NCBI GenBank assembly: GCA_027622665.1
Contig: JAQBYT010000001.1
Coordinates: 416,001 to 480,000 of the forward strand
Length of the DNA: 64,000 nucleotides
Direction of reading: 5' to 3'
Source: Verrucomicrobiota bacterium
GTDB lineage: Bacteria; Verrucomicrobiota; Verrucomicrobiia; Opitutales; Seribacteraceae
The notes beneath the pieces were generated by a model that saw nothing but the letters and a program-made list of their open reading frames with translations, did not search any database and was not told the origin of the DNA. Below are positions 1 to 33,813 of this stretch, piece after piece. The position numbers and the translations under genes are program-made. Each line of letters starts with the position of its first letter. Positions within the stretch are counted from its first letter, which is position 1.

Positions 1-3000
1 GATGCGATTATCATGAGAACGGTAGGAAGTGGCTACACTGCGCCTCCGGTTGTGGATATTCGCGGAGGTTTCGGCGTGAACAGCGTACTTCTTGAGGCGC
101 ACGCCTCGTCGGGAGGATCCAATCTTTTGACTGAAGTACAGTTTTTTGCCGATGGCTTGAGCCAAGGAGGTCCCGTGGCCATACCTCCCTATATCGGGGA
201 ATGGTCTCCCGGCGAAGCCGGAATCCACCAAATTTGGGCCGTCGCCAGGGATGACAAGGGAAATGAAACGGTGTCCCCTGTATTGGAGGTAGACGTAACC
301 TACGTTGACCCCCCCGAGATTAAGTTTCTCTCTCATTGGAACTCTCTTGAAAACTCTCATGAGTACGCTCGAGATAACACCATCCACCTCACTGCCTTTG
401 CGGACGTACCGGAAGGCTTTATTCGTGATGTTGTCTTTCGCATAGACAACGGGAACGAAATTCAGGCCAATATGACCGGCAACCGACTATGGTCAGCCGA
501 GTACGTGGCCGACAGTGTCGGCATGCACAAAGTGGAAGCCTTGGCCACGGACGTTAATATGATCGAGACTCTGGTCGATTCGCCATCCTACCTCAAGGTT
601 ACGGCTGCTAACGGTTCTTTGTCCCCTGAGGTTTCAATTACTTATCCCGAGGCGAATGAAAGCATTACTTCCACTTCGCAAATCTTGCTTTCCGCTCAAG
701 CATCTGATCCCGACGGCAGGGTCGAAGGCGTCCAATTTTACGTAAATGGAGCGAATGGCTGGATAATTTCTAATGCCAACCCCTCCGCCGGTGATGCCAT
801 AAATGTTGTATACGACGACTTCAATGGTACTTGGACTTTCGGTGAGAATATTTCCATCGGCAGCACTTCTGAGGAAAGTCTAAGTAATTTGCATGCAGCC
901 ATTTCAGTCGCACCAGATACGCAGTTTGATCTAAGATTGGAAACTGACAATTTGGCATTCTGCTTCAAGGATACTTCCAAGGCTTCCATAACCGTTACCG
1001 CCGGGACTTCCTTGTTGGCAAAAGAGTTAAAGGAAAGCCTAAGGCCTACGGCGATCGTATCGCCCGTCGATTTCTCTTACAGTTCTTTTTGGCAACCTAA
1101 TAAACCTGGCTTCTTTGTAATACATAGTGTTGTACGAGACAATAGTGGTAATCGTGTTATGAGTGAACCCATTACGATTACTGCTACAACCGGCGGAGGT
1201 GTTCCACCGCAGGTTGATTTGCTTATACCTGCCCCAACTTGGTCGACCAATTCGACAATGGATGAAAATGGATCATTAATTGTCCACCCGGGTCAGCAAC
1301 TGTCAGTCTTGGCCGCGGTCAATTCTTCGGTGGGTATTCAGCAAGTAGATTTTTACCAAGACGGTGTCCTTATAGGAACCGATGCCAATAGGACTGATGG
1401 TCTTTATACTGCTGGCTTTCAATTACCTGCGACTTTTTCCGGCACTGCATTGTCTGGCTTATATGCAACGGCTAGGGATTTTAACGGAAATATTGGGACT
1501 AGCAAAATCAAGACTTTGAGTCTTCGGAATGAAGGCAGTTCTCTTCCCCCATTAATTTCTATTGTCCCTCTCGCTGATCCAAACGCGACCTTGACCTCCA
1601 CCTCGACCCTCCGCCTTTATGCAAATGCCTCGGATCCCGACGGTAGCGTTGAGGGCGTTCAATTTTACGTAAATGGAGCCAACGCGTGGATTCAGTTTCT
1701 ATCGAATCCCTTGCGGGAAGATGAGGTTGTTCTCAACGACGGCAAAGCTCCTGCCGATGTGACATTAACTTTTGGAGAAAATGTAACTATCGGAACAACC
1801 CTCAAGGATTCACGAAACAACTTGCATCTAGTATTATCCGAGAAGATAACGACGCTTAATCTCGGGCTTGAAGTTACGCGCTTTGATGATCACAGTTTGT
1901 TGCTTAACTTCGCAGATACGAATTCTGGTTCCCTTACGGTCAATGAAAGCGTTTCCTTGCGCGCTCAAATGCTCAAGGAGGTTCTGCGACCCTCGGCTGT
2001 ATATCACAATACTTTTCCTTACGTCGTGGATTGGACTCCCGGGCTCTCCGGTACTTACGTGATCAATGGCATAGTTCGCGACAACAGCGGCAATCGTACC
2101 ATGAGTGCTTCCTCAATCGTTAGATCGACCACCGGAAAAGGAAGTTTGCCCATAGTGGTCTTGGCTACTTTAAACGACGCTCATCTTATAAACGACTCCA
2201 TTTTCTTACAGGCGACGGTTACGGACGCCGAGAGTCCCAACACCAGTTTGGGTATTCAACAAGTTCTCTTTCTTGTGAATGGAGTTGAACAAAATGCCTC
2301 AGATTTACTTCCACCTTATTTTACCTTCTGGACTCCAACTCAACCGGGAATTTATGAAGTGGCGGCTTTTGCTAAAGATGACGATGGGAATGTCGCTTTT
2401 TCTAATATAGAGGAGGTTGTCGTATTCGCGGAAACCAGCGAGGTTTTAGCCTTCACTTCTTTAGGGCGCGTTCTTTCCGGAGGAGCAAAGAAGATTGTGA
2501 TCATCCCGAGTGGTGGTGGTGGTGGTAGTGGTGGTGGTGGTGGCAGTGGTGGCAGACGATCAGCCAACGGCGAAACGAAGATAGTGGGATTGAGCTCGAA
2601 GTTTCTTTCCGAACTTGTGCCGGGTCAGAAAATACGTTTTGTCAGCGGTTTGAAGGCCAGCGACATCTACACTGTGGCTCAGGTCGTTAATGATGCTGAA
2701 TTGGACATTCTGGAAACATTGAGCGATGCCGATTTCATTCTGCTGTCCAATCAATCCGATGTTCATGTAGTCGAAATTTATCGCGCCGGATCTTGGGTGT
2801 TTCTTGCCGTTGATCAAGACATGAACACAGCAAATATTGCCAATGTTAGATTTTACGTTGATGGAACTCTTGTGGCAACTGATACGACTTGGCCTTTTAG
2901 CTCTGGCTTTATTCCCGCGGATGATGGGAATTATTCAATTCGCGCGCTTTCTACAGATCGAAACGGAATTGAAAAGTTGGTAGAAAAACGAATTGAGGTG

Positions 3001-5151
3001 TTGCCTCAAGTCGGTGAATTGCCCGATGGAGCAAGGGCACTCTATCCGCAACTGGCTAGAAGGGGAGCGACTACTCGTGGTTCTAAACTTATTGCGGTTC
3101 CCGAAATAGTGGATTTGGACGACGGCTTAAACCGAGTGGAATTTTATCTTAACGGGAAATTTTATCACTTAGATGATAAAGAACCTTACTACTGCATTTT
3201 TTCTCCCGACTCCAGTACCTCTCTTTTCGAGACGGATCGTTTTTGGGAACTCACGATGGTGGCTGTCGACAACAGCGACAATAGAATATCGTTGACCGAA
3301 AGCGGTACTGTTCAAGGATCTGTGACACTGCCCCAGGCAGTCATGATCAGTCCTCTTCCGGAAACCGAATACACTGTTGGTCAACTCATGAACATTACGG
3401 TGCAGGTCCAAGGCGTAAACCTGCCTCGCGTAGTGGGGCCGAGCGCCGCCGCCGGAAACAATCCAAACGCAGCGCAACAAAAGCGACTGATGGCAATTTT
3501 TGCCAATGGTCAAGAAATCGGTTTGGCTAACGAAACTTCATTTGGTACGGGTCGCTTTACCTTTGACTGGAGCACGAAACAAGAAGTCGCGGGCAGCGAT
3601 GGCAAGGTAGATCTTTTTGGAGCTGTAGTCATGCAAAATGAAACTGTCGATGGTTTGATCTACACGCCTTCGATTGTTTCTGCTCCGGTAACGATTACAC
3701 TTAACAAAAGAAATCCTTTTGGAGACATGAAGTCAGCCGTAAGCCAGTTTTACAAAGATTTACTGTTATACGAACCTTCCGAACAAGAGGTGAAACAATC
3801 TTTAGATTATATTGGTAGTGGAGCTGATGGGGAATATGTTTTTGACGACACAGTGTTTTTGGAGTGGGCCTCAACTCTTTCCCAAAAACAAGCCTTCCAG
3901 GACCTTACGAATGCCGTGGGAGGTCACTACATCACTATGGGTTATTGGCCATCCAAAAACTCCATGGACGATGCCCTGCAAACTTATTCTGCCATTCCGA
4001 ATTACGGAAGAGATGGTAGTGGCGATGCAGATGGAGATGGCTATTCAGCGAATCAAGAAGCGATCTGGAGTACAAGCGATACGAACGTTACCAGTTTTCC
4101 CGAAAAGGGCTTTCGTTTTGGGTCCTATCTGGACACGACCTTTTACTCTCTTCCTTTTCTCCGTGCCCATGATCCGATAGGACCCTTTGACGGCTATGAT
4201 GAAGCAGAGAACGAGTTGAATCGCCGTGAGTTCGTTACGTTTTTATACGAAAAGAAGCACGATATCCCGCCAACGCTTCAACAGAAAATTCAAGGATCAT
4301 TCAGAATTCAAAGCCTTGACCCTATGACGGCGTGGAAAGTTAGGGAAGAGGAGAGGCAACGACAAGAACAGATTCAACAAATGCTGCAGCAACAATACTT
4401 GAATCAACAAGGGGGAGGAAATAATAACAACAACAGAAACAACAACAACAACACACCACAAGCCCCCATCACGCAACCGGAGCCCCCACCCGCCATACTG
4501 TACGGGAATAACGATGGTGCGATAAATTTTACCATGCACATGGTTTATGAGGAACCGATTACCAGTGGGAAGGCGAAGTTCGATTTGCTCTGGAATGCTC
4601 CGAAAAAACGATATGAATTTCAAACTGCCGCAGCAATGTTGGCACTTTGGCAGGACAATTTAGTGGACTTGGATCAGGCGGAAATCAATAAATATTCCAG
4701 CATGCCGATGGCTTCCCAAATACAAGCCATGATGAAGGACTATCGATATCGGTCCCGATTTGCCGGTATGTCGATTTCTAAAGAAGCCGAGGAGGTAGCT
4801 TCAAATGCACCTGATTGGAAATATCTGCCATGGCTTGGTTATTATACCGATCGTAGTTTCCCTTGGATCTATCACATCGGCGACGAAAAGAGCACGAATG
4901 GATTGGGCTGGGTTTACGTTCAGGCACCCACCTCGAAAGAGGCATGGTTTTATATTTCAGGTATTGGTTGGATGTGGTCGTCAGAATCCATATGGAAGAG
5001 CTTGTCCACGTACAAGCCAACGGCAAATGAGACATGGTCACTGTTGCCTCTTTACGATTCCAGTGCCGGAAATTGGGTGGCGTATGTTCTTGGCTCTTCC
5101 TCCGGTCGCCTGTTTTACGATTACGCGCAGCAGAAGTTCATCGAAAGATGA
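1..5151 (+). CDS. Giant surface protein with bacterial Ig-like repeats (5'-partial)
   Basis: Frame is open from base 1 (DAII-MRTVGSGYT). Repeated A-SDPDG-V--VQFYVNG / A-A-D--GN Ig-like modules, DGDG Ca-binding-like motif, DUF4214-like helical segments, Trp-rich C-terminal domain. Confidence 0.85.
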   Translation, partial: DAIIMRTVGSGYTAPPVVDIRGGFGVNSVLLEAHASSGGSNLLTEVQFFADGLSQGGPVAIPPYIGEWSPGEAGIHQIWAVARDDKGNETVSPVLEVDVTYVDPPEIKFLSHWNSLENSHEYARDNTIHLTAFADVPEGFIRDVVFRIDNGNEIQANMTGNRLWSAEYVADSVGMHKVEALATDVNMIETLVDSPSYLKVTAANGSLSPEVSITYPEANESITSTSQILLSAQASDPDGRVEGVQFYVNGANGWIISNANPSAGDAINVVYDDFNGTWTFGENISIGSTSEESLSNLHAAISVAPDTQFDLRLETDNLAFCFKDTSKASITVTAGTSLLAKELKESLRPTAIVSPVDFSYSSFWQPNKPGFFVIHSVVRDNSGNRVMSEPITITATTGGGVPPQVDLLIPAPTWSTNSTMDENGSLIVHPGQQLSVLAAVNSSVGIQQVDFYQDGVLIGTDANRTDGLYTAGFQLPATFSGTALSGLYATARDFNGNIGTSKIKTLSLRNEGSSLPPLISIVPLADPNATLTSTSTLRLYANASDPDGSVEGVQFYVNGANAWIQFLSNPLREDEVVLNDGKAPADVTLTFGENVTIGTTLKDSRNNLHLVLSEKITTLNLGLEVTRFDDHSLLLNFADTNSGSLTVNESVSLRAQMLKEVLRPSAVYHNTFPYVVDWTPGLSGTYVINGIVRDNSGNRTMSASSIVRSTTGKGSLPIVVLATLNDAHLINDSIFLQATVTDAESPNTSLGIQQVLFLVNGVEQNASDLLPPYFTFWTPTQPGIYEVAAFAKDDDGNVAFSNIEEVVVFAETSEVLAFTSLGRVLSGGAKKIVIIPSGGGGGSGGGGGSGGRRSANGETKIVGLSSKFLSELVPGQKIRFVSGLKASDIYTVAQVVNDAELDILETLSDADFILLSNQSDVHVVEIYRAGSWVFLAVDQDMNTANIANVRFYVDGTLVATDTTWPFSSGFIPADDGNYSIRALSTDRNGIEKLVEKRIEVLPQVGELPDGARALYPQLARRGATTRGSKLIAVPEIVDLDDGLNRVEFYLNGKFYHLDDKEPYYCIFSPDSSTSLFETDRFWELTMVAVDNSDNRISLTESGTVQGSVTLPQAVMISPLPETEYTVGQLMNITVQVQGVNLPRVVGPSAAAGNNPNAAQQKRLMAIFANGQEIGLANETSFGTGRFTFDWSTKQEVAGSDGKVDLFGAVVMQNETVDGLIYTPSIVSAPVTITLNKRNPFGDMKSAVSQFYKDLLLYEPSEQEVKQSLDYIGSGADGEYVFDDTVFLEWASTLSQKQAFQDLTNAVGGHYITMGYWPSKNSMDDALQTYSAIPNYGRDGSGDADGDGYSANQEAIWSTSDTNVTSFPEKGFRFGSYLDTTFYSLPFLRAHDPIGPFDGYDEAENELNRREFVTFLYEKKHDIPPTLQQKIQGSFRIQSLDPMTAWKVREEERQRQEQIQQMLQQQYLNQQGGGNNNNNRNNNNNTPQAPITQPEPPPAILYGNNDGAINFTMHMVYEEPITSGKAKFDLLWNAPKKRYEFQTAAAMLALWQDNLVDLDQAEINKYSSMPMASQIQAMMKDYRYRSRFAGMSISKEAEEVASNAPDWKYLPWLGYYTDRSFPWIYHIGDEKSTNGLGWVYVQAPTSKEAWFYISGIGWMWSSESIWKSLSTYKPTANETWSLLPLYDSSAGNWVAYVLGSSSGRLFYDYAQQKFIER

Positions 5152-5173
5152 TCTGCAAGCTTTACGCAACAGC

Positions 5174-6307
5174 GTGAGGCTGCTCCATGTCGTTCATTCC
5201 TGCAATCCTTTGGCCGGAGGGGTAGCTGAAGCAGTTAACCGATTGGCGGAGGCCGCCATAGAGGCTGATCATGAAGCTGAAATTGCTAGCTGCGATCAGC
5301 CCTCTGCTTCTTTTCTCGAAGAACTAGACGTTCAAGCGAGAGGATTTGGTCCTGCATCGGATTCCAGTTACCACTCTTGTCCCGCCCTTGGCGGTTGGCT
5401 TATGGAAAACGCCGCCAGTTTTGATGCACTTGTATCCCATGGCTTGTGGCAGTACCCAAGTGTAACTGTTCGAAAGGCTGCTCGCAGTGCAGGCAAGCCG
5501 TACTTCGTCTATCCGCATGGAATGCTAGACCCTTGGTTCAAGCGCCAATATCCATGGAAACATATAAAAAAAAGTTTTTTTTGGTGGTACCGACAAGCCC
5601 GCATTTTGCGTGACGCCAAGGCAGTATGCTTTACCACCGATGAGGAGCGTCGATTGGCTCGTGGAACATTTCGCCCGTATAAGTGCAACGAGGTCGTAAC
5701 GGGCTTGGGTGTGGCCGAACCGCCTCCGGATGCAGATGCTCAAACACATGCTTTTAATGAGAAATTCCCATGCTTGCGAAACAAGAGAACCTTGCTTTTC
5801 CTTGGCCGTATCCATCGCAAGAAAGGAATCGACCTTCTTCTCCAAGCATTCGAAGAATTGTCGACGGCGGATGATCACCTTGTCGTAGCCGGACCAAAAG
5901 AAGATGGTTCTTTTGCGGAAGCACTTACCCGCGCATCAGGTAAATTCGCCGATCGAATCACTTGGGCGGGTATGATTCGAGGCGATCTAAAGTGGGGTGC
6001 CTTGCGAGTAGCCGATGCCCTGATTCTGCCTTCCCACCAGGAAAACTTCGGTATGGTTGTCGCCGAAGCTCTTGCCGTAGGAACTCCGGTGCTGATAACC
6101 GACAAAGTTAACCTTTGGAGAGAGGTGGAAGATGATCGAGCCGGAAAAATTTCCACAGACGATCTTTCGGGCATTCGATCCTTGATGCGGGAATGGAAGA
6201 ACCCTTCTTTTTATAAGCTTACTCCCAACGCACGACCCTGTTTCGAGAAGCGCTTTAAGATTGAATCTGCTGCAGTGAATTTAGCGAATTTAATCGAGGA
6301 CTTTTAG
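5174..6307 (+). CDS. Glycosyltransferase family 4
   Basis: FLGRIHRKKGID and PSHQENFGMVVAEALAVGTPV GT-B motifs. Start reassigned to GTG 5174 (VRLLHVV) because the longer ORF overlaps the upstream gene. Confidence 0.9.
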   Translation: MRLLHVVHSCNPLAGGVAEAVNRLAEAAIEADHEAEIASCDQPSASFLEELDVQARGFGPASDSSYHSCPALGGWLMENAASFDALVSHGLWQYPSVTVRKAARSAGKPYFVYPHGMLDPWFKRQYPWKHIKKSFFWWYRQARILRDAKAVCFTTDEERRLARGTFRPYKCNEVVTGLGVAEPPPDADAQTHAFNEKFPCLRNKRTLLFLGRIHRKKGIDLLLQAFEELSTADDHLVVAGPKEDGSFAEALTRASGKFADRITWAGMIRGDLKWGALRVADALILPSHQENFGMVVAEALAVGTPVLITDKVNLWREVEDDRAGKISTDDLSGIRSLMREWKNPSFYKLTPNARPCFEKRFKIESAAVNLANLIEDF

Positions 6308-6335
6308 AAAAGGGCTTTCCATGCTCGGCACGGAG

Positions 6336-6890
6336 TCACTCTAGGTCGTCGCTCTCTCTACCTTCACCCATCTTGCCGTCTGGTCCCAGAGAAAAGAGTC
6401 GGAACCCCGCAAGGCCATCCTTCCGAGGAAATTGGTACATATAGTTGTTTCCCCATGGGTCGCAGAATGCAACGTCTTGGCTTAAGGCAAAGGAGATAAG
6501 AGCAATAGAATTTTCACTGTCCGACGGATCTATTCCTTCCAGTTCCGTTGCTTCCATATCCATCGGACCATAATAAAAGTTTGTTGGGTTAACCAACGAT
6601 GGTGAAGGAGGAATCTGTAGCCCATTTTCGTTGTGGTATCCCATAAGAGAAAGAAACAAGCATTCGCCAGTCGAACAAATTTTTGCGGGGCAATTCGGAA
6701 AGTCCCCCCGTTCCGCCTTAAATTCCTCGATAGCCATACGTAGAACTGTCAATTCGGATTTTGCATTTTTCTCGTCAATTGAATCGAGTACATAACTCGT
6801 AATGGGGAATGCTATACTCATGAGAATTCCAATAAGTGCAATGACTGAGAATAACTCCAGCAAGGTGAACCCCTTTTCTTTTTTATCCAT
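6336..6890 (-). CDS. Type II secretion pseudopilin-like (GspG-like) protein
   Basis: Prepilin cleavage/N-methylation motif KGFTLLEL plus hydrophobic helix; C-terminal DPWGNNY...SLGPDG GspG-type motif. Confidence 0.8.
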   Translation of the reverse strand: MDKKEKGFTLLELFSVIALIGILMSIAFPITSYVLDSIDEKNAKSELTVLRMAIEEFKAERGDFPNCPAKICSTGECLFLSLMGYHNENGLQIPPSPSLVNPTNFYYGPMDMEATELEGIDPSDSENSIALISFALSQDVAFCDPWGNNYMYQFPRKDGLAGFRLFSLGPDGKMGEGRESDDLE

Positions 6891-6961
6891 CCTCAAGTCG
6901 AAAGAATCATGTTATTTCCATACCACCTTGACTTTGTTTCCGAAAGCTGAAAAATAATTTC

Positions 6962-7219
6962 ATGAAACTAATGTTGCGACTAACCTTTTGCGTACTATCC
7001 CTTTTCTTTTTTAGCTGTATAGAGGAAGGCAGTTCCGAAGATAAGAGTGTTCCTGAAGTGAACCCTAAAGGGAAAAAGTTTTTGGTGAAAGCAAAACAGT
7101 ATTCGCGGGAAGATTTTCTTGCACACAAATCTGCAGATAAAGCGGCTAAAGGAAATGCGAGCGGTGGTTCCTCTACAGTCAGTACCGGGACTAACATGCC
7201 TACGAATCCCCCTGAGTGA
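6962..7219 (+). CDS. Small putative lipoprotein
   Basis: Basic N-terminus, hydrophobic stretch and FFSC lipobox-like Cys; fills the intergenic gap. Confidence 0.55.
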   Translation: MKLMLRLTFCVLSLFFFSCIEEGSSEDKSVPEVNPKGKKFLVKAKQYSREDFLAHKSADKAAKGNASGGSSTVSTGTNMPTNPPE

Positions 7220-7371
7220 TGCTATTAAATCACCCTACTTTAGTGCCAAAAAACTAGATCTCAGGAAAATTTACCTTCTTTTTTGTTTTTGCAATAATTT
7301 CTTAATACCTTTTCACATGCCGGTATTCATTCGGCTAAAAATTATATTTTAGTTGGTCCAATTGAACCAAG

Positions 7372-8499
7372 GTGAAAATAACTCTTCTTCAGGGTGCATT
7401 TTTGCCTATTCCTCCTCTACGAGGCGGAGCTATTGAGAAGGCGTGGTTTAGGCTGGGTAAGTCTTTTGCCCGAGAGGGTCATGAAGTAACTCATGTTTCT
7501 CGCTTGTGTGATGGCTTGCCTATAAATGAGGCTATTGAAGGCGTAAACCATGTGAGGATTCGAGGATTCGAGGCGACGTGCTCGTCCTTTTTGCTCAAAT
7601 GGAGAGATTTCCGTTATGTTTTACGGGCTCGAAGAGCCTTGCCGCCTGCCGACATTCTTGTAACGAATGCATTCTGGGCACCTCTCTTGGTTCGGGATTC
7701 ATCCCTTGGGGCTCAGTACGTCCATGTGGGGCGATACCCAAAAGGGCAAATGAAACTTTATGGGAGGGCGAAGCGCCTGCAGGCACCCTCGGAAGCAATC
7801 GCTGCGGCGATTCAATGCGAGGTTCCTTCGAAGGCGGATATAGTGAAGACAATACCGTATCCGCTTTCATGGGATTTGGTAGAACCTGTCCCGACACGCT
7901 CAAGTCGAGAGCAAACGATTCTCTACCTGGGTCGAATTCATCCCGAGAAGGGTTTGTGCGAATTGGTGAAGGCCTTTGCTGGTTTACCCGAAGAGCTACG
8001 GCGGCAATGGCGACTTGATGTTCGTGGACCCTGGAAAGCGAGTGAGGGTGGGGGAGGGAGAGATTTTTTGGAAAACCTAAAAAATTTGGTTGGGCCGGCA
8101 AAAGAAGCAATTCGCTTTCTGGACCCGGTTTTCGATGACGTTAAATTGCGTGAGGAGTTAGGTCGCGCCAGTTTGTTTATCTACCCTTCGATGGCTGAGC
8201 GAGGAGAGACGTTCGGTTTGGCGGCTCTCGAGGCAATGAGTTGCGGATGCCCCCCCTTGGTCTCCGGATTGGACTGCTTCCGAGACTTTGTTCAGGATGG
8301 CAGCACGGGATTCGTTTTCGATCATCGAGGAGGTGATGCCGTTGCTAACCTGAGCGCCAAAATGATCGAAGTCCTAAGTAAGCCCGAAAGGCTATCCCTC
8401 ATAGGAAACGCTGCCTATGGGCAGGCGCAAAACTTTACATTGGATAGGGTCTCAAAACGGTTTCTGGACGATTTTTCGAGCATTCTTCCTGCTTCTTAA
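7372..8499 (+). CDS. Glycosyltransferase family 4
   Basis: YLGRIHPEKG and ETFGLAALEAMSCGCP motifs. Confidence 0.9.
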   Translation: MKITLLQGAFLPIPPLRGGAIEKAWFRLGKSFAREGHEVTHVSRLCDGLPINEAIEGVNHVRIRGFEATCSSFLLKWRDFRYVLRARRALPPADILVTNAFWAPLLVRDSSLGAQYVHVGRYPKGQMKLYGRAKRLQAPSEAIAAAIQCEVPSKADIVKTIPYPLSWDLVEPVPTRSSREQTILYLGRIHPEKGLCELVKAFAGLPEELRRQWRLDVRGPWKASEGGGGRDFLENLKNLVGPAKEAIRFLDPVFDDVKLREELGRASLFIYPSMAERGETFGLAALEAMSCGCPPLVSGLDCFRDFVQDGSTGFVFDHRGGDAVANLSAKMIEVLSKPERLSLIGNAAYGQAQNFTLDRVSKRFLDDFSSILPAS

Positions 8500-8576
8500 T
8501 ATTGTGTTTGGCCAGTAAACCGCTTGCACTCCACGCAACCTCGCCTTTGTTTTGATTTTTCTATAAACAATATAAA

Positions 8577-9125
8577 ATGCTCATGAACTTAAAATGCCGC
8601 TATCTTTCCATCATTGCCATAACGGTTAGTCTTGCCCTGCTGCCCGGGGTATCTACTGCCAAGTCCAAGGGCGAAAAGGCATCAAAAGTTTTTTTGCCCG
8701 ATGAGTTGTTGGATGCTGCGGGGAAAGCCGTTTCCGGGGACACTCTATCCGGAAAGTACGTGGGACTATATTTTTCCGCCAGTTGGTGCCCGCCTTGCCG
8801 AACCTTTACTCCAAAACTTGTGGAATTCCACAAAGCCAACAAGGAAAAGTTCGAAGTGCTGCTCGTGAGCGCGGATAATTCCGAGAAGGCCCAAGCCAAC
8901 TATATGAAGAAGTATATGATGCCTTGGCTAGCGGTAAAGCATCAGTCAATAGCTGCAAATTTACTAGTTAAGAAGATGGAAGTCAGCGGTATTCCCTTCC
9001 TTGTGATTTTGGGCCCTGACGGCTCTGTTGTGACCAAGGATGGTCGAGACGATGTAAATAGTATGGGCAACAAAGCTTTATTAAAATGGAAGAGCACCCA
9101 AGACGAGAAGCTTGGCCTGAAGTAG
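8577..9125 (+). CDS. Exported nucleoredoxin/tryparedoxin-like thioredoxin
   Basis: Signal peptide; GLYFSASWCPPCRTFTP, MPWLAV and GIPFLVI motifs. Confidence 0.85.
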   Translation: MLMNLKCRYLSIIAITVSLALLPGVSTAKSKGEKASKVFLPDELLDAAGKAVSGDTLSGKYVGLYFSASWCPPCRTFTPKLVEFHKANKEKFEVLLVSADNSEKAQANYMKKYMMPWLAVKHQSIAANLLVKKMEVSGIPFLVILGPDGSVVTKDGRDDVNSMGNKALLKWKSTQDEKLGLK

Positions 9126-29094: not shown

Positions 29095-29241
29095 AACCCA
29101 TTAACTAATATATGAACTCTTAACAGAGCAAGAGCTCCGCCAGGATGGCGGCGCCTACTCGCATTCACCTGCAAACTATTTCCGAGACAAGGAAGTCTCC
29201 TCATGCAACTTAGCAATTTCGTAACTTTACAGTCGCGAGGG
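29095..29241 (+). repeat. Copy 1 of duplicated flagellin leader plus start (two GGA hairpins)
   Basis: AACCCATTAACTAAT..ATGAAC..GCTCCGCCAGGATGGCGGCGCC..GAGACAAGGAAGTCTC..ATGCAACT aligns with 29384-29530 at a 289-bp offset. Confidence 0.85.
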
Positions 29242-29373
29242 CACCATCCCCGCAAATCTGTTCGGGTCTTCCCGTCCAGACCCTTAACTGGCTGTGTACC
29301 CTGCGGCTTGAAGGGAAGTTCATCTTTGGTATCCGTCTGTCGGAAAACTCACAAATCTCTCTTTTCCAAATAA
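29203..29373 (+). pseudogene. Truncated, frameshifted paralogue of the 29492 flagellin N-terminus
   Basis: MQLSNFVTLQSRGHH versus MQLTNYGFIESRGNY; frameshifted LNWLCT..GLK versus MERLSTGLK; stop after 56 codons. Confidence 0.65.
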
Positions 29374-29383
29374 ACCAACAATA

Positions 29384-29530
29384 AACCCATAAACTAATCA
29401 ATGAACCTTACCTGATTTAGGGCTCCGCCAGGAGGGCGGCGCCCAATCATTTAATTACTAAATGTAAACCCTGAGACAAGGAGGTCTCGTTATGCAACTA
29501 ACCAACTATGGATTCATCGAGTCCCGAGGT
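29384..29530 (+). repeat. Copy 2 of duplicated flagellin leader plus start (two GGA hairpins)
   Basis: CCGCC-AGGAG-GGCGG and GAGAC-AAGGAG-GTCTC hairpins; the second occludes the SD of the ATG at 29492. Confidence 0.85.
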
Positions 29531-30970
29531 AACTATATCTCGGCTCGAGCCAACTACGAACGTCCCATGGAACGCCTTTCCACGGGACTCAAAATCAATC
29601 ATTCCCGCGATGACGTGGGGGCTTTGGGCAAGTCTGCCCTTCAGCGTATCGAAAACACAAAAGTCGGGACTTTGCGCACCAACCTGCAAAACGCCTTGAG
29701 TTATACCAAGACTCAAGACGGCGCTTTGGAGAAAGTCGGCCGAATTTACGAACGCATGGAGACTTTGGCGCTCAAGGCGATGGACGTTACCTTCGACGAT
29801 CGGTCCAGAAGTGATTTGAACGATGAATATCAAACGCTGGAGGAGCAACTCTCCGGTCTTTTGAAGCAAAAGTTCAACGGCATTTCCCTTTTTACCAAGG
29901 CGACCGGATGTACGGAACCCGAGGTGACGGAATTGGAGGCCAGCTTCGATGCGGGACTTAATGAAACATTACCCCCAACTATTCCTGCCGTTGGGGTTAA
30001 AACGCAGGCAAACCCCGATCGATGGATCGCCACGCAGGATGTCGATACTACCGATGGAACCCTTACCTTGGACGTGAATGGAGGAAGAGCTTCCGAAAGG
30101 TATATCGTCAAGCAAGGGACGACCACGATCTTTGACACGGGTTGGTGGGCGACCAATGGTTCCGCTTATACTCATGACTTAGATCGATTTGTAATCGACT
30201 TCGGCAAGGGCAAGCCAACCACGTTCGAGTTTGTTCCTCGGGATACAGGTAATTCTACTACTGACAATACCCCTGACGGAGCTTTCAACAATGAGAGCTT
30301 TAACCTTAAAGGCGGCGGTGGCCCTTCTGGCTACTTGTTGCAACTGGGAGAAGGCTCGACGGCAGGTCTTCTTGGGAAAAAATATACAACAAGCGGTGGA
30401 CCGGTGACTCAAGGTCAGGTTGCGATAACACCGGCCCCGGGCGACAGTACGGAACTGACGATTGAGGTTCAATCCACGAGCTTGTTTCAAGCGGCTGCAG
30501 ACTTCAAAGGTGTCAAAATAATAGAGCCCGTGGAAGTTCCGGCATTAGAGGTCGTTGTCAACGAAGCTGGAGATATCGCGCGTTTCGAAGCCTTGGGGTT
30601 CAGTCGTCTATCCGGTACCGATATTACTACACGAGATAATGCGCAAGCAGTGCTTGAGCGTCTTCTCGGAGAGAACGGCGAAGCTACCGAGCACGGAGAA
30701 GTTCATTGCTTGGTGAATGGCCAAAGAGGTGAAATCGCCAAGAGTATGCGTCGTATGGAGTTGGAAATCGAAAGACTCGAAAACAAAACGATCAGCGGTG
30801 AAAAAACGCTTGGCCGCATAGAAGATGCCCACATGGCCAAAGAAGCGACCAAGTTTGCCAAGCAGTCTCTCAAGATGGAACTGGCCGCAAACATAATGTC
30901 TCGTGTAACTAGACTAACAGACGTGCTTTTGCCCTTGGTCACCCAACGAGTAGGTGGTCCCGGCTTGTAA
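29492..30970 (+). CDS. Atypical flagellin-like protein A with a beta-rich central insert
   Basis: Flagellin N-domain (ERLSTGLKINHSRDD, NLQNALSYTKTQDGAL, KFNGISLF) and C-domain (GRIEDAHMAKEATKF). Confidence 0.85.
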   Translation: MQLTNYGFIESRGNYISARANYERPMERLSTGLKINHSRDDVGALGKSALQRIENTKVGTLRTNLQNALSYTKTQDGALEKVGRIYERMETLALKAMDVTFDDRSRSDLNDEYQTLEEQLSGLLKQKFNGISLFTKATGCTEPEVTELEASFDAGLNETLPPTIPAVGVKTQANPDRWIATQDVDTTDGTLTLDVNGGRASERYIVKQGTTTIFDTGWWATNGSAYTHDLDRFVIDFGKGKPTTFEFVPRDTGNSTTDNTPDGAFNNESFNLKGGGGPSGYLLQLGEGSTAGLLGKKYTTSGGPVTQGQVAITPAPGDSTELTIEVQSTSLFQAAADFKGVKIIEPVEVPALEVVVNEAGDIARFEALGFSRLSGTDITTRDNAQAVLERLLGENGEATEHGEVHCLVNGQRGEIAKSMRRMELEIERLENKTISGEKTLGRIEDAHMAKEATKFAKQSLKMELAANIMSRVTRLTDVLLPLVTQRVGGPGL

Positions 30971-31192
30971 ATAATATTCAGGAAATAGGAGCCGAAGCAG
31001 TATTTCCGGCGAAGTCGTGAGTCGGTTTTGAAATTGTCCGCATATGAGATATAGCCAGTCGAACTTAGCTCGCACTGCCCACCAAGCTGCTTGTTAAGCC
31101 ATACATACTAACCAATAATCTTTAACAAAGAAATCAGTTTATTAGAAATAGGTTTAGCGAGGAACGAACCTTCTACCCAAAGGATATGAACG

Positions 31193-32458
31193 ATGATTAG
31201 TGACCAAATCAACATGCATATTGCCAGAGAGTTGGGAACTTTGGATCGTGAGCATCGAGTTCACGTGAAGAAGCTTTCAACTGGCAAGCGCATACTTGCG
31301 CCCGGAGACGATGCGGGTGGCTACTCCTTGGCCGTGAAGCATGGAAGTGCCGCAAGGCGAACCCAAGCGATGCTGACCAATCTGCAAAACGTCCTTTCCT
31401 ACGCCCAAACCCAAGACGGAGTTTTGACTAGCGTTGGAAAGGTTTACAAGCGAATGGACGAACTTACCGCTATGGCGATGGATCCGACTAAAACCGATTC
31501 CGACCGTGCTTTATATAACAAGGAATTCCAAGAGTTGCGCGACATGGCAGTTCGGGCGAACGGTGAGGATTTCAACGGACTTCGCCTTTTCCGAGGGAAG
31601 CTATATGAGCTTGTTGACAAGGGGATGAAAATCAATTGGACCGACTCGAAGGCAGAGGTCGATGCACTGGACGCCGGAGATGCAAACAACACCTATTACT
31701 TGGCAACCATTACCTCTGAAACCGAGCAAGCGGAGGTTGGCCTACAGATCGGAGACGTCGGCATCAATGCTTGGCTCGGAGGAAATGATACTGCTGTTGA
31801 AGGGGAATGGAGGTGGACCGAAGGTCCCGAAGGCTTGGAGGATGGAGGCCAAGGCAGGCAGTTTTGGCAGGGCCAATCCAATGGCTCTGGCGTAAACGGT
31901 TCCTTTGAAAATTGGGGCGGCCGAGAACCAAATGATTCTGGGAACGAGGACTACCTTCAAATTAGCCAAGCTTCTAACCCCGTTGCCTCTTGGAACGATT
32001 TGCCTGATACGAATACAGCGGGATCAACATATCAACCGAACGGTTATGTCTTGGAGGTTGACCAAGGAGACCTGAAGGTCGGGAAGGATCGAAACGGAGA
32101 TACCTTTGAGCTCAAGAACGTTGATTTCCAAAAGTATCTAAGTGAGACGGTATTATCTATCGATACCATGGCGAATGCTCAGGCTGCCACAGTTGCGATG
32201 AAGGGAGTTATAGAAAACATAGCCACCGCCAGAGCAATTGTGGGAGCAAACTTGTCTAGGGTTTCCGGAGAGATAGAAAACCTTCGCAGGCTTGGAAATT
32301 CGTATGAGTCAGCTCTTTCTAGGGTGGAGGACCTTGACATGGCTTTGGAAAGTGGTCGTATGTCAAGAAAAGCGGTCAAGCTGCAGAGTTCCTCCGCATA
32401 TCTTGCTCAGGCAAATCAAATTATGAACCCCAATCTGATTCAGGTCTTGCTCGAATAA
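31193..32458 (+). CDS. Flagellin-like protein B with an internal C-type lectin domain
   Basis: KLSTGKRI..PGDDAGG, QTQDGVL, FNGLRLF; insert YLATITSETEQ, AWLGGND..EGEWRW, NWGGREPND, EDY, WNDL; C-domain RAIVGA, SRVEDLDMA.E, LAQANQ. Confidence 0.9.
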   Translation: MISDQINMHIARELGTLDREHRVHVKKLSTGKRILAPGDDAGGYSLAVKHGSAARRTQAMLTNLQNVLSYAQTQDGVLTSVGKVYKRMDELTAMAMDPTKTDSDRALYNKEFQELRDMAVRANGEDFNGLRLFRGKLYELVDKGMKINWTDSKAEVDALDAGDANNTYYLATITSETEQAEVGLQIGDVGINAWLGGNDTAVEGEWRWTEGPEGLEDGGQGRQFWQGQSNGSGVNGSFENWGGREPNDSGNEDYLQISQASNPVASWNDLPDTNTAGSTYQPNGYVLEVDQGDLKVGKDRNGDTFELKNVDFQKYLSETVLSIDTMANAQAATVAMKGVIENIATARAIVGANLSRVSGEIENLRRLGNSYESALSRVEDLDMALESGRMSRKAVKLQSSSAYLAQANQIMNPNLIQVLLE

Positions 32459-32550
32459 CAACAATTTCATTGGTTTTACGGGAATGGCAATAGCCCAAGG
32501 AAGGCCAAACTGGCAAATCCCGTAGTCCTAACGAACAGGAATCGTAACTT

Positions 32551-33813
32551 TCAATCGGGTCCATTCTTTTTCCCATTAACCGCGACAAGCAACCCTTTTG
32601 CATCTTGCCATCTTGCCATCTGGAAATCATAGCGGTTTTGTAAAATTAAGACTTCCTGCTCTCTCTTTTCCAGCAATTGAAAGCGAGGATTCAATTTGCT
32701 TTTGGAAGAGGCGGCCTTGGCAATTGTCACAAGTCTGGCCCGTACTTCGTTTCTACTTTTTAAGGTTTCAGAATAACCGTCCTTTAGGGAAGTAATGACC
32801 ACAGTCAGCTCCGTTCCCAATTTTTGCATCGCTTGTGCAATCTGGTGATCCAGTTCTTCTCGGATGGCTTTGTTTTTTGCTTTTGGCGAATTTCGAAACT
32901 CCCTCAACTGCTTGATGGTGTCGGAGAAATCGGCAAGATTCCCCTTGTTGGAAAGGATTGCTAAAGCCGCCAGATCTTCTGAGGAAGCACCTTTTTCACG
33001 GGCTTCTTTTAAGGTCGAAAACACATCGACATGCTCGGCTAGCTCTTTTTCGCACTGATCTCGCTCTGCACGAAGTGAGATTTCTTCCACTGTTGCAATG
33101 GGCTTTGCCGACTGTCTCTGCTGGATCTGTCGCCGAAGCTCCTCGATTTCCTTTTCTTTTCGCTGGAGGGAGAACGCCAATTCGGTGACTACCGGCAATA
33201 AGTGAGCCTGTGCAGATTCTTTCTCAAGGATTTGGGCATGTGCTCGAAAAATGAGTTGACTCAATAACTTTGCCGCTTCGGGAGTTTTGCCGCGACTCGA
33301 AATCTCTATGATCTCCGAACCATTTGAATCCTTTTGGGCTATTGAAAAAAGTGATCTGGTAAGTGCATCGTTTCCCAGGGCGATGGATTGATTCGAGAAG
33401 GGACCCAGTATCATCTTCTGGGCGTTAGCACTGGATTCAATCATTTGGGTGAGGTGCTGCAGGAAAAGCTTTCCGTCTAGTACCCGCCGATGCATGTCCA
33501 ATGCCTCCTGAGGAGTCACGCCCTTTTTCCCCGAAGTTTTTTTTGCACGATATAGAAGTTTTGCGGTCGACATCTCTTGTCGCAGCAAGAGCGTCGAGGG
33601 ACGCCGTTTGTCGGGATAAAGGTTTTTTTTTGTCAAAATGTCTTCACCGTAAGCAGAATTGGAGCGATTCTCGTCGTTACTTAAATTAAGCGAACCACTA
33701 GTCTGGCGGACGCTTTGAGTTATCTTTTCGTTTTCTGATTTCGTTTGGACCATCCCAGCCCAGAAGAGCAGCACAGTTATCAAAATGAAAGCAAAGCTTA
33801 GGGCAGTTTTCAC
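32551..33813 (-). CDS. Membrane-anchored coiled-coil protein with weak Wzz/GumC-like segment
   Basis: N-terminal TM/signal; SEIIEISSRGKTPEAAKLLSQ followed by long coiled coil. Confidence 0.65.
   Translation of the reverse strand: MKTALSFAFILITVLLFWAGMVQTKSENEKITQSVRQTSGSLNLSNDENRSNSAYGEDILTKKNLYPDKRRPSTLLLRQEMSTAKLLYRAKKTSGKKGVTPQEALDMHRRVLDGKLFLQHLTQMIESSANAQKMILGPFSNQSIALGNDALTRSLFSIAQKDSNGSEIIEISSRGKTPEAAKLLSQLIFRAHAQILEKESAQAHLLPVVTELAFSLQRKEKEIEELRRQIQQRQSAKPIATVEEISLRAERDQCEKELAEHVDVFSTLKEAREKGASSEDLAALAILSNKGNLADFSDTIKQLREFRNSPKAKNKAIREELDHQIAQAMQKLGTELTVVITSLKDGYSETLKSRNEVRARLVTIAKAASSKSKLNPRFQLLEKREQEVLILQNRYDFQMARWQDAKGLLVAVNGKKNGPD

Follow-up and report, generated by a model that had tools for sequence, protein, structure and literature searches.

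We describe a flagellin from a marine Verrucomicrobiota bacterium whose cysteine-free outer domain is predicted to be C-type lectin-like (a CTLD). With moderate confidence, and leaning on structural models, we take the protein to be a flagellin that likely displays a Ca2+-dependent glycan-binding site on the filament; its sugar binding, export and filament incorporation are what we infer. The gene lies in a window of 64,000 nt from a Verrucomicrobiota bacterium (Opitutales; assembly GCA_027622665.1, contig JAQBYT010000001.1, positions 416,001-480,000 of the forward strand).

The CTLD-flagellin gene and its flagellin core

In window positions, the gene is composed of the following parts:

31180..31184, + strand: AAGGA, read from the sequence; stands 8 nt ahead of the ATG and is likely the ribosome-binding site
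31193..32458, + strand: CTLD-flagellin gene, from the ORF list (421 aa and a stop codon, ATG start)
31193..31597, + strand: N-terminal D0/D1 helical core, residues 1-135 (Flagellin_N, model helices)
31598..32062, + strand: inserted C-type lectin-like domain, residues 136-290 (insert model, fold matches, profile, conservation)
32063..32167, + strand: return linker, residues 291-325 (short strands in the model, 294-296 and 305-307; least conserved part)
32168..32455, + strand: C-terminal D1/D0 helix, residues 326-421 (Flagellin_C; in the model one helix, 326-410)

A preliminary description of this DNA had named the ORF a flagellin, and both ends of the protein bear this out. Flagellin_N (PF00669) covers residues 22-136 with 63.8 bits (cut-off 26.6) and Flagellin_C (PF00700) covers residues 338-411 with 48.4 bits (cut-off 23). 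The N-terminal core is modelled as helices 2-30, 41-95 and 102-122, and in a PDB sequence search this stretch aligned with residues 20-141 of Bacillus subtilis Hag chains. Searched as a whole against the PDB, the protein matched flagellins down to E 3.6e-21 and the hook-filament junction protein FlgL (9go6_L) at just 5.8e-6; the FlgL model TIGR02550 scored 78.9 bits, under its cut-off of 127.2. None of the NCBIfam flagellin models reached its own cut-off on the CTLD-flagellin. The whole-protein model (pLDDT 81.5) had flagellins as its top Foldseek matches, solved filaments included, and places the CTLD at the D1 loop of a complete D0/D1 core. Set beside the plain flagellins of the same genome, its D0 segment at the N terminus falls short by about 4 residues and shares just 32-41% identity with theirs.

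The insert is predicted to adopt a C-type lectin fold

As Foldseek with the whole-protein model returned flagellins only, the insert was folded separately. The resulting model (pLDDT 95.3, pTM 0.91) gave at least 310 CTLD matches at E <= 0.001 in Foldseek, headed by CEL-I (7e-8), and the top matches were all carbohydrate-recognition domains (CRDs). With VIA-align, 61 of 48,161 chains reached Z >= 8, the best being collectin CL-K1 with Z 16.6 and an rmsd of 1.5 Å over 116 residues. DC-SIGNR/L-SIGN, CL-K1, CEL-I and mannose receptor CRD4 share the fold at Z 15-16.6 and rmsd 1.3-2.2 Å. The structure prediction thus upholds the earlier assignment of the insert to the CTLDs.

Sequence searches lead to the same fold. 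Searched by itself, the insert matched 47 different PDB sequences (E <= 10), every one of them of C-type-lectin fold (best langerin, 8.6e-4), and a profile of eight insert sequences found 92 at E <= 0.001 (best DC-SIGNR/L-SIGN, 2.6e-11), with all 60 of the 92 that were listed belonging to the C-type lectin family. Pfam Lectin_C (PF00059) on the window protein alone scored 15.9 bits (E 0.023), below the cut-off of 22.6, so that profile and fold searches were needed; in relatives of the same architecture it lies above the gathering score (28.8 bits in P0162, 46.2 bits in P0156). The proposed architecture Flagellin_N + Lectin_C + Flagellin_C is recovered by Pfam at both flagellin ends, the Lectin_C part falling short of its threshold.

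The individual motifs from which the domain had been recognised are all in place, with coordinates computed from the start codon: W149..S152-K153, YLATITS (169-175), EQ (178-179) and WLGGND..EGEWRW (194-208) in the first half, and NW (240-241), EPN (245-247), EDY (252-254), WND (267-269) and GYVLE (284-288) in the second. With the animal CRDs the insert has in common EPN / E / WND in register, a WIGL-like WLGG and WxW. It differs from them in its low identity (20-30%), the lack of disulfides, with Tyr254 where the conserved Cys stands, about 20 extra residues (GPEG...FW) after the WRW strand, and its embedding in a bacterial polymer.

The CTLDs also include the type II antifreeze proteins of fish, which work through the same Ca2+ site, and these occur among the matches of the insert (2zib at E 0.0014 by sequence, 2py2 by fold). 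They match no better than the sugar-binding CRDs, and the metagenomes in which the DNA was found (marine, estuary, seawater and aquatic) hold no pointer to cold or ice, which leaves an ice- or mineral-binding surface a very remote prospect.

A cysteine-free bacterial branch of the fold

The whole CTLD-flagellin holds 0 Cys, so the two conserved disulfides of the canonical animal CTLD are absent from the window protein. The insert belongs to a bacterial Lectin_C subfamily and matched 2,549 representatives at E <= 0.001. Pfam Lectin_C was present in 38 of 53 representatives scanned, beside cadherin, Ig, FG-GAP, PKD and fn3 repeats, and giant Opitutia proteins (L040-L045) carry the same subfamily. 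Cysteines are missing from all 121 flagellin-borne domains and from 182 of 266 non-flagellin domains of this subfamily, which places the insert in a Cys-free bacterial branch of the fold. The Cys-free relatives are giant surface proteins and small PEP-CTERM-type proteins, tethered or secreted, unlike filament subunits.

That the insert lacks cysteines had been noted correctly, but the state is not special to the flagellin copies. Since most non-flagellin domains share it, it looks like a trait that the donor domain already had and that is convenient for export in the unfolded state, rather than an adaptation for export. We know of no member of this Cys-free subfamily with measured sugar binding, and a search of the literature outside subscription journals for a characterised bacterial C-type lectin gave nothing relevant among the matches listed.

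The predicted Ca2+ and sugar site

Four segments of the insert make up the predicted Ca2+-binding residues:

31787..31801, + strand: D199 ... E203 (in GGNDTAVEG), family-invariant columns of alignment A1
31925..31933, + strand: EPN (E245-P246-N247), half of the predicted primary Ca2+/sugar site, in register with the DC-SIGNR EPN
31946..31954, + strand: E252-D253-Y254, the predicted Ca2+-ligand glutamate followed by Asp and Tyr, aligned to the DC-SIGNR E-D-C
31991..31999, + strand: WND (W267-N268-D269), the other half of the predicted Ca2+/sugar site, aligned to the DC-SIGNR WND

By mannose-binding-protein numbering, we take D199 ... E203 to be ligands of the auxiliary Ca2+ site (site 1). In alignment A1, P246, E252 and WND are invariant, with conservation of 90% or more at E245 and N247. 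The EPN and WND residues to which a Ca2+ site had been ascribed stand, in the HMM alignment of the insert profile, in canonical register with DC-SIGNR, and the combination EPN/E/WND recurs in 114 of the 121 flagellin-borne CTLDs; six others have QPD/E/WND and one has EPN/E/WNE, so that WND itself is kept in 120 copies and replaced by WNE in 1. Among the non-flagellin domains of the subfamily, EPN/E/WND is kept in 160 of 266. A change from EPN to QPD is the classic specificity switch, with the Ca2+ ligands retained. EPN is described as tied to mannose-type and QPD to galactose-type binding (PMC5379193), and at one locus (L037, one genome) a QPD gene and an EPN gene stand in tandem.

An intact EPN/WND motif is no proof of sugar binding, and a common fold shows no function. 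The domain might be structural only, a Ca2+-stabilised decoration without an external ligand that alters stiffness, hydrodynamics, or resistance to proteases, phages or grazers. Its Ca2+ ligands would be conserved for stability alone too, and many CTLD-fold proteins bind no sugar, NK receptors and tetranectin being among the fold matches; many flagellin outer domains are, moreover, described as having no known ligand and as affecting motility through domain contacts (PMC8931119). Against this stands the observation that the sole recurrent change of the site is EPN to QPD (6 of 121) with the Ca2+ ligands kept, as does the occurrence of the same subfamily in giant multi-domain surface proteins (cadherin, Ig, FG-GAP, PKD) of a make-up typical of adhesins. 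In most cases such outer domains are also where a flagellin is least conserved, the reverse of what we find below, and we consider a purely structural role unlikely.

Conservation and origin of the inserted domain

Across 33 sequences, mean pairwise identity was 63.4% in the insert, 52.5% in the N core, 48.5% in the C core and 43.5% in the linker, and the insert is conserved above the core across two genera. The "hypervariable region" of the preliminary description is hence a misnomer: nothing else in the protein is as well conserved as the insert (63% vs 49-53% in the core). In four close orthologues, dN/dS was 0.11-0.16 in the CTLD and 0.08-0.13 in the core; judged by these sequence comparisons, the insert is under purifying selection within one marine Opitutales family. 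Among 18 close relatives, variation was spread evenly, with a fraction differing of 0.09-0.14 in all regions, and gave no sign of strains having swapped the domain.

A lectin-fold flagellin diversified by a diversity-generating retroelement (DGR) seems unlikely: no reverse-transcriptase family was found among the 45 other ORFs of the window scanned at E <= 1e-5, and the variation among the 18 close relatives is not focused in the lectin domain.

Full-length matches were confined to one family, the marine Opitutales just mentioned, and turned up in 8 of the 301 genomes from the order. In the tree, 44 of 46 flagellin-borne tips fall into one clade (support 0.99). Under midpoint rooting, strict monophyly of the flagellin-borne CTLDs does not hold, because the two domains of P0156, an unrelated flagellin of 1,111 aa, place elsewhere. 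Loci with orthologues of about 50% identity have the same flanking genes. Together, the clade, the shared flanks and the genome spread suggest a single old acquisition of the flagellin-borne CTLD that was probably passed on vertically.

Genomic context and expression

The nearest flagellin gene stands directly before the CTLD gene:

29492..30970, + strand: neighbouring flagellin gene, 492 aa, with a different insert (Pfam; same strand, 222 nt upstream)

This neighbour belongs to a variable array of flagellin genes whose chromosomal site is conserved, to judge by the arrays and conserved flanks in related loci. Upstream of the window gene, a pattern search over 260 nt recognised no sigma-28-like promoter, nor was the pattern found upstream of the closest relatives (L023, L024, L026); TAAAG-N14/15-GTCGAT does occur upstream of two orthologues (L033, L039) and, within the same genome, of three other flagellin genes. 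For sigma-70, a scan of 5.5 kb yielded 2 sites where 4.8 were expected, i.e. no signal. CsrA-type GGA hairpins (GACAAGGATGTC) were seen in the leaders of the orthologues with about 50% identity and of other flagellin genes; such a hairpin is not clearly present before the window gene, and the genome has CsrA.

Contigs from marine RNA libraries cover parts of the CTLD gene in 4 of 4 libraries (4 studies). One example runs from 30813 to 31791 at 94% identity, and contigs extend from the 3' end of the neighbouring flagellin gene through the spacer into the CTLD gene. As they bridge the spacer, the CTLD gene may be transcribed from the upstream flagellin gene. Cover of the neighbouring genes is uneven. 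Between about 31825 and 32328 there was no cover among the pieces listed for four RNA runs at 92% likeness, and by depth bins 32017-32217 had 0 in four runs, 31816-32016 had 1.53 in run X17 alone, and 32218-32418 had 0.02-2.8; an uncovered part in such contigs proves nothing. The libraries can contain DNA, so the contigs cannot prove transcription, and we read them as a hint that the CTLD gene is expressed.

A further reading, based on analogy, starts from the flagellin homologues p5 and p6 of Sphingomonas sp. A1, described as cell-surface alginate receptors with affinities of about nM (PMC9751261). The CTLD-flagellin could likewise be a secreted or cell-surface lectin, released by flagellar export or another route, and not a filament subunit. 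Structures of p5/p6 (3k8v, 2zbi) are among its PDB sequence matches, and its N-terminal D0, short and divergent, and the missing sigma-28-like pattern would agree with this. Both cases have in common a flagellin family in a polysaccharide degrader; p5/p6 bind and capture polysaccharide, and the CTLD-flagellin would do so by our reading. They differ in that p5/p6 sit on the cell surface and hold alginate by basic residues in a D0/D1 'spoke' cleft, not by an inserted lectin domain (PMC9751261). Moreover, the CTLD-flagellin has D0 and D1 complete at either end, with purifying selection on them no weaker than on the CTLD, which a monomeric lectin would not need, and the gene sits within arrays of flagellin genes. 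A role outside the filament therefore seems improbable to us.

Flagellins are often glycosylated, and the lectin might be directed at self or kin, binding glycans of neighbouring flagellins or of the cell's own surface and leading to bundling, a sheath-like layer or aggregation. The evidence from fold and site would be the same as for an outward-facing lectin, and the window holds glycosyltransferase and sugar-nucleotide genes. None of these adjoins the CTLD gene, nor does any flagellin-glycosylation locus, and we give this alternative a low probability.

The host genome

The genome encodes a flagellar apparatus (FlhA, 801 bits; FliD; FliS, 126 bits; FliG, 124 bits) and about 12 flagellin paralogues. 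One of these is of flagellinolysin type (Flagellin_N + Peptidase_M9 + Flagellin_C, 581 aa, contig C30), others have large inserts as well, and three are plain flagellins of 302-346 aa. The plain flagellins may form the bulk of the filament, in which case the CTLD subunit could be a minor one. The organism is known only through metagenome and single-cell assemblies.

With 132 sulfatase matches in 4.5 Mb, the host appears from its gene content to be a specialist for sulfated polysaccharides, which would make algal or particle glycans likely ligands. Algal polysaccharide particles as the ligand are, through these sulfatase matches alone, plausible.

Relation to known flagellins with functional domains

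Flagellinolysin (FlaMP; Eckhard et al. 2017) is a flagellin with a functional insert for which zinc metallopeptidase activity is reported (PMC5595980). The earlier remark that flagellins with enzyme domains exist holds good both for flagellinolysin (PMC5595980) and for the paralogue of that type in the same genome, whose N-terminal core is, at 41% identity, the closest among the paralogues to that of the CTLD-flagellin. Common to the two proteins is a folded domain in place of the hypervariable region between intact D0/D1 ends. The flagellinolysin insert is described as displayed on the filament in many copies (PMC5595980), and a corresponding display would be expected for the CTLD. Unlike flagellinolysin, our protein carries a predicted lectin fold without a catalytic motif; no peptidase family (HExxH, Peptidase_M9-like) is among its Pfam matches, and it is not a member of the flagellinolysins.

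The combination of flagellin and Lectin_C is already catalogued, undiscussed, as a table row in PMC11532411 ('Structural diversity and clustering of bacterial flagellar outer domains'). Cluster 213 of its Supplementary Data 1 lists five flagellins labelled 'Opitutae bacterium', 421-460 aa long, whose outer domains span 158-197 aa, and one of them, A0A2D8I1U9 (423 aa), is assigned PF00059 Lectin_C; the words 'lectin', 'carbohydrate' and 'glycan' do not occur in the main text. Matched by its table description, cluster 213 is very probably the same family as the window protein. This survey aside, our search of the literature outside subscription journals brought up, among the matches listed, no paper describing a flagellin that carries a C-type lectin domain. 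The preliminary description knew of no characterised example, which seems right, although the architecture itself had been listed.

Discussion

We favour a filament subunit with an outward-facing lectin site, which would work as follows. The subunit would be exported unfolded via the flagellar type III channel, helped by its disulfide-free state, and would polymerise through D0/D1, alone or mixed with the plain flagellins of the genome. The CTLD would then fold outside the cell. In the CTLD fold, the N and C termini are next to each other and the Ca2+ site is at the far end; the site would for this reason point away from the filament axis. In Ca2+-rich seawater, many weak contacts of mannose/fucose/GlcNAc type (EPN) could together give a strong, multivalent hold on particles or cells rich in glycans, with algal or particle glycans as likely ligands.

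A broader reading, which we put forward tentatively and hold to be possible, is that of a modular, 'tool-carrying' flagellum. Here, one conserved subunit of marine Opitutales would make the rotating filament a multivalent, Ca2+-dependent lectin for fucose/mannose-type (EPN) or galactose-type (QPD) algal glycans, alongside sister subunits bearing a protease, a propeller with a LamG domain, or other modules, and the filament, besides swimming, would find, hold and start to process polysaccharide particles.

Flagella stick to surfaces, and to our knowledge the binding site is known in almost no case. Here, a recognisable and mutable predicted sugar site is found inside the flagellin subunit itself, and as it is built into the subunit, the question whether a flagellar filament can be a lectin becomes testable with one recombinant domain. 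If the reading is true, a lectin flagellum would be known from nature for the first time, as would a defined role for a bacterial C-type lectin of the EPN type, and the idea that flagellinolysin introduced, of filaments carrying functional domains, would be widened from catalysis to recognition. The CTLD-flagellin also offers a natural scaffold for the display of lectins on filaments. A role would be given to the large and unstudied Cys-free branch that the C-type lectin fold has in bacteria, and the finding would suggest how those abundant marine Verrucomicrobiota that break down sulfated polysaccharides get to their substrates and keep hold of them.

A flagellin core with an inserted lectin-like domain

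The window gene encodes a 421-residue protein with the following features:

31193-32458, + strand: CTLD flagellin ORF, 421 codons, ATG start
8 nt upstream of this ATG, + strand: AAGGA, read from the sequence
31925-31933, + strand: EPN, residues 245-247 of the translated gene
31991-31999, + strand: WND, residues 267-269 of the translated gene

The protein is a flagellin. Pfam Flagellin_N (residues 22-136, 63.8 bits against a cut-off of 26.6) and Flagellin_C (residues 338-411, 48.4 bits against 23) both score above cut-off, which bears out the preliminary description of an insert flanked by the two flagellin domains. Each lectin motif named there was found at its assigned position in the ORF, and the claimed absence of cysteine extends to the whole protein (0 Cys). 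By sequence, the PDB entries that match it best are flagellins whose filaments have solved structures, reaching E 3.6e-21. FlgL scores no better than 5.8e-6 in this search, and the NCBIfam FlgL model gives 78.9 bits, under its cut-off of 127.2. The whole-protein model, built with 33 homologues (pLDDT 81.5), displays long N- and C-terminal D0/D1 helices and leads Foldseek to flagellar filaments. As the PDB search aligns the protein to residues 20-141 and 195-303 of B. subtilis Hag, its core is complete, and the ~160 extra residues are placed in the D1 loop, the usual seat of outer domains. Beside this complete core, a non-filament secreted or surface lectin, similar to Sphingomonas p5/p6 (PMC9751261), would be an improbable reading.

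The 4.5-Mb genome (93.5% complete) encodes FlhA, FliG, FliS and a FliD. The matches to FliD, the filament cap, lie at C15:50966-51907 (- strand; C-numbers are contigs of this genome) in a 1,165-codon open frame, far above the usual cap length. Thirteen Flagellin_N loci score above cut-off, among them three plain flagellins (302, 316 and 346 aa), one 938-aa flagellin and a broken propeller/LamG giant. Two more of the thirteen are given here with their coordinates in our set of genome loci with flanks (L-numbers):

C30:4162-5907 (L012:66-1808), - strand: flagellinolysin-type gene, 581 aa, Flagellin_N + Peptidase_M9 + Flagellin_C
C3:51082-54279 (L017:83-3277), + strand: 1,065-aa protein with a Flagellin_N match and a CBM_5_12 match

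The 581-aa protein has the closest paralogous N-terminal core to the lectin flagellin (41% identity), and a sigma-28-like TAAAG-N15-TCCGAT precedes its gene. The 1,065-aa protein, whose gene directly follows one with a FlgK-like C-terminus, is possibly a giant FlgL with a carbohydrate-binding module; a CsrA gene (C3:54818-54973) lies ~500 nt downstream. No gene of this genome other than the one in the window was found to encode this CTLD. A stand-alone 183-aa protein (C14:43064-43615, - strand; L021:68-616) scores 56.6 bits with Pfam Lectin_C and is only distantly like the insert (21 bits with the insert profile).

The insert as a C-type lectin fold

Pfam Lectin_C remains below threshold on the window protein (15.9 bits, E 0.023), and the insert was therefore examined by further tests. 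Searched alone against the PDB, residues 136-296 return 47 sequences at E <= 10, all 47 of the C-type-lectin fold. A profile of eight insert-type sequences gives 92 matches at E <= 0.001, led by DC-SIGNR/L-SIGN (E 2.6e-11); the best 60 of these 92 all belong to the C-type lectin family. Folded alone with 47 sequences, the insert models as a CTLD (pLDDT 95.3, pTM 0.91), as the preliminary description had anticipated. In the PDB, Foldseek finds 310 or more structures matching the model at E <= 0.001, headed by the sugar-binding domains CEL-I, Endo180 CRD2, DC-SIGNR and mannose-receptor CRD4. A Foldseek-independent fold search against 48,161 chains yields 61 at Z >= 8, topped by the collectin CL-K1 (Z 16.6, rmsd 1.5 Å, 116 residues), and the best 50 of the 61 are all CTLD proteins, judged by their titles. 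Next to these sugar-binding leaders, a role of the CTLD in ice binding would be highly implausible.

HMM alignment sets W-G-x-x-E-P-N-D-S-G-N-E-D-Y ... W-N-D of the insert on W-N-S-G-E-P-N-N-S-G-N-E-D-C ... W-N-D of DC-SIGNR, so that all five residues whose side chains bind the primary Ca2+ and the sugar in animal CTLDs have their counterparts in register. Where animal CTLDs such as DC-SIGNR have a conserved cysteine, the window insert has Tyr254. D199 and E203, invariant in the CTLD-flagellin family, are presumably ligands of the auxiliary Ca2+ site by mannose-binding-protein numbering.

Conservation and sugar-site variants

CTLD flagellins are a conserved family and not a single oddity: the whole window protein has 214 relatives among 7,993 scored candidates, those with names being 'flagellin [Opitutae/Opitutales bacterium]' or bearing a JGI generic COG name. 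In an alignment of 33 relatives (identity down to 47%), invariant columns are concentrated in the insert. The preliminary description had assigned the lectin to a hypervariable region, which does not hold: mean pairwise identity is highest in the CTLD (63.4%), followed by the N core (52.5%), the C core (48.5%) and the return linker (43.5%), and differences among 18 close relatives are spread evenly along the protein. A dN/dS comparison of four close orthologues gives 0.11-0.16 for the CTLD against 0.08-0.13 for the core.

A link of EPN to mannose-type and of QPD to galactose-type specificity is established knowledge. Among 121 flagellin-borne CTLDs, defined as instances in retrieved proteins that also match flagellin-core profiles, the site reads EPN/E/WND in 114, QPD/E/WND in six and EPN/E/WNE in one, and all 121 lack cysteine. 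Non-flagellin instances of the same domain carry EPN/E/WND in 160 of 266 cases and no cysteine in 182 of 266; the cysteine-free state was thus already common in the donor subfamily. Given this site pattern, we consider a purely structural outer domain unlikely. In lectin-flagellin ORFs from 16 genome loci (n = 18), 17 have EPN and one has QPD; PMC5379193 connects the former with mannose-type and the latter with galactose-type binding. Both motifs occur in tandem in L037 (2810-4105 QPD, then 4146-5414 EPN), while both genes of the L031 tandem (5893-7293 and 7338-8609) have EPN; both loci come from single-cell or metagenome genomes.

Origin and distribution

Searched alone, the insert retrieves 2,549 representatives at E <= 0.001, of which 731 reach E <= 1e-10. 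A Pfam scan of 53 of the 150 relatives listed detects Lectin_C in 38 and Flagellin_N in only three of the 53; the others are surface proteins of large size whose further modules are cadherin-like, Ig-like, FG-GAP, PKD, fn3, CHU_C or Por-tail. Small relatives have PEP-CTERM-like tails, and the same domain occurs in giant Opitutia proteins (L040-L045). We built a tree of 197 domains from 476 instances, retaining those with >= 110 aligned residues and dereplicating at 90% identity. One clade (support 0.99) unites 44 of the 46 flagellin-borne tips with one 172-aa fragment, a topology that fits gain of the lectin domain by a single insertion event in this Opitutales lineage. The two remaining tips, outside this clade, are both Lectin_C domains of P0156, a retrieved flagellin of 1,111 aa whose core is canonical and very unlike that of the window protein (Flagellin_N 121 bits). 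On tree placement and core, P0156 is a second lectin-flagellin of independent origin.

The architecture is found at 17 loci of species-representative genomes, all uncultured marine Opitutia, Opitutales, Puniceicoccaceae or Verrucomicrobiota assemblies. Within the order, 57 of 301 sampled genomes have a flagellin-type match at E <= 1e-20. Full-length matches are confined to eight of these 301 genomes, all eight in the window's own family (two of three genomes of its genus, six of 11 of a second genus); none was found elsewhere among the 301.

The window and loci with ~50% identical orthologues share their flanks:

One side: AMP-binding enzyme, thioredoxin-reductase-like protein, TatD, MazG-like protein, sulfate permease
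Other side: minus-strand protein without known function, ECF sigma factor, PQQ-propeller protein

The flanks enclose a flagellin array that varies in make-up and counts one to three genes, with a CTLD flagellin in every case; no flagellar apparatus genes were found within the 64-kb window. A protein of 420 aa (32551-33813, - strand), hydrophobic in an N-terminal segment and matching no Pfam family, like its counterparts in L029 and L033, always sits between the array and the ECF sigma factor gene. Window positions 1-5151 (+ strand) are the tail of a ~3,984-codon ORF starting ~6.8 kb before the window.

The neighbouring flagellin and expression

Upstream of the window gene lies a second flagellin gene:

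29492-30970, + strand: 492-aa flagellin, Flagellin_N and Flagellin_C

Its insert comprises ~240 residues of no Pfam family. In a 1,938-nt contig from RNA library run X17, the middle of this gene (29622-30813) is swapped, with 1,124 other letters for 1,190; unlike the lectin insert, this insert appears to vary between strains. Positions 29120-29245 repeat the gene's leader together with its opening ~13 codons, including a hairpin CTCCGCCAGGAxGGCGGCG and a GAGACAAGGAxGTCTC stem around the ribosome site. The copy appears to be what is left of a third flagellin gene after its deletion; the related locus L024 has three flagellin genes in a row.

Six RNA runs contain 17-27% of the sampled words of 30900-32600 (gene plus flanks), and the four of them that were compared with the window, from four studies, each give contigs on the window gene (likeness 92-100%). 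One spans 30813-31791; a second starts in the flagellin gene upstream, crosses the 222-nt spacer and reaches 31413. Such contigs are no proof that the gene is transcribed, from which strand, or as one transcript. The neighbouring genes are covered unevenly, an argument against simple carry-over of DNA.

No sigma-28-like promoter was found upstream of the window gene. TAAAG-N14-GTCGAT stands in front of the array-heading orthologues in L033 and L039 and, within this genome, of three further flagellin genes. GGA-loop hairpins (GACAAGGATGTC, GGCAAGGATGCTGG, GAGACAAGGAGGTCTC) that resemble binding sites of CsrA, and in some cases overlie the ribosome site, occur in the 5' leaders of lectin flagellins in L028, L029, L031 and L037 and of the flagellin genes on C8 and C55. 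Such hairpins would fit a control of flagellin translation by CsrA in this phylum.

Predicted function of the lectin flagellin

We lean slightly towards a model in which the CTLD flagellin would display Ca2+-dependent glycan binding on the filament. The subunit would be exported unfolded via the flagellar channel and polymerise through D0/D1, and a CTLD without need of a disulfide may be able to fold at the filament tip. In the CTLD fold the two ends are adjacent, with the Ca2+ site at the far pole of the domain, so the site would face outward. Weak single C-type sites, thousands per filament in Ca2+-rich seawater, may then hold strongly on repetitive glycans. By gene content the host is a sulfated-polysaccharide degrader, marked by 132 sulfatase matches. 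Glycans of self or kin would be unlikely ligands. The preliminary description is confirmed as an observation, and its interpretation as a filament-borne glycan adhesin is partly supported.

Flagellinolysin established that functional domains can be borne by natural flagellins (PMC5595980). A 2024 survey of flagellin outer domains (PMC11532411), with AlphaFold models in 682 clusters, names peptidase, pectate-lyase-like and WD40 inserts in its main text, where the words 'lectin', 'carbohydrate' and 'glycan' are absent. Cluster 213 of its supplementary table holds five flagellins (421-460 aa) labelled 'Opitutae bacterium', and PF00059 Lectin_C is entered for one of them. The architecture has therefore been recorded before, though unremarked and with its function only predicted. 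Besides this survey, we found no paper describing C-type lectin domains in flagellins in the literature covered, subscription journals being outside it. As a whole, the lectin flagellin, with its predicted function, would represent a well-defined, conserved and directly testable case of functionalised flagellins.
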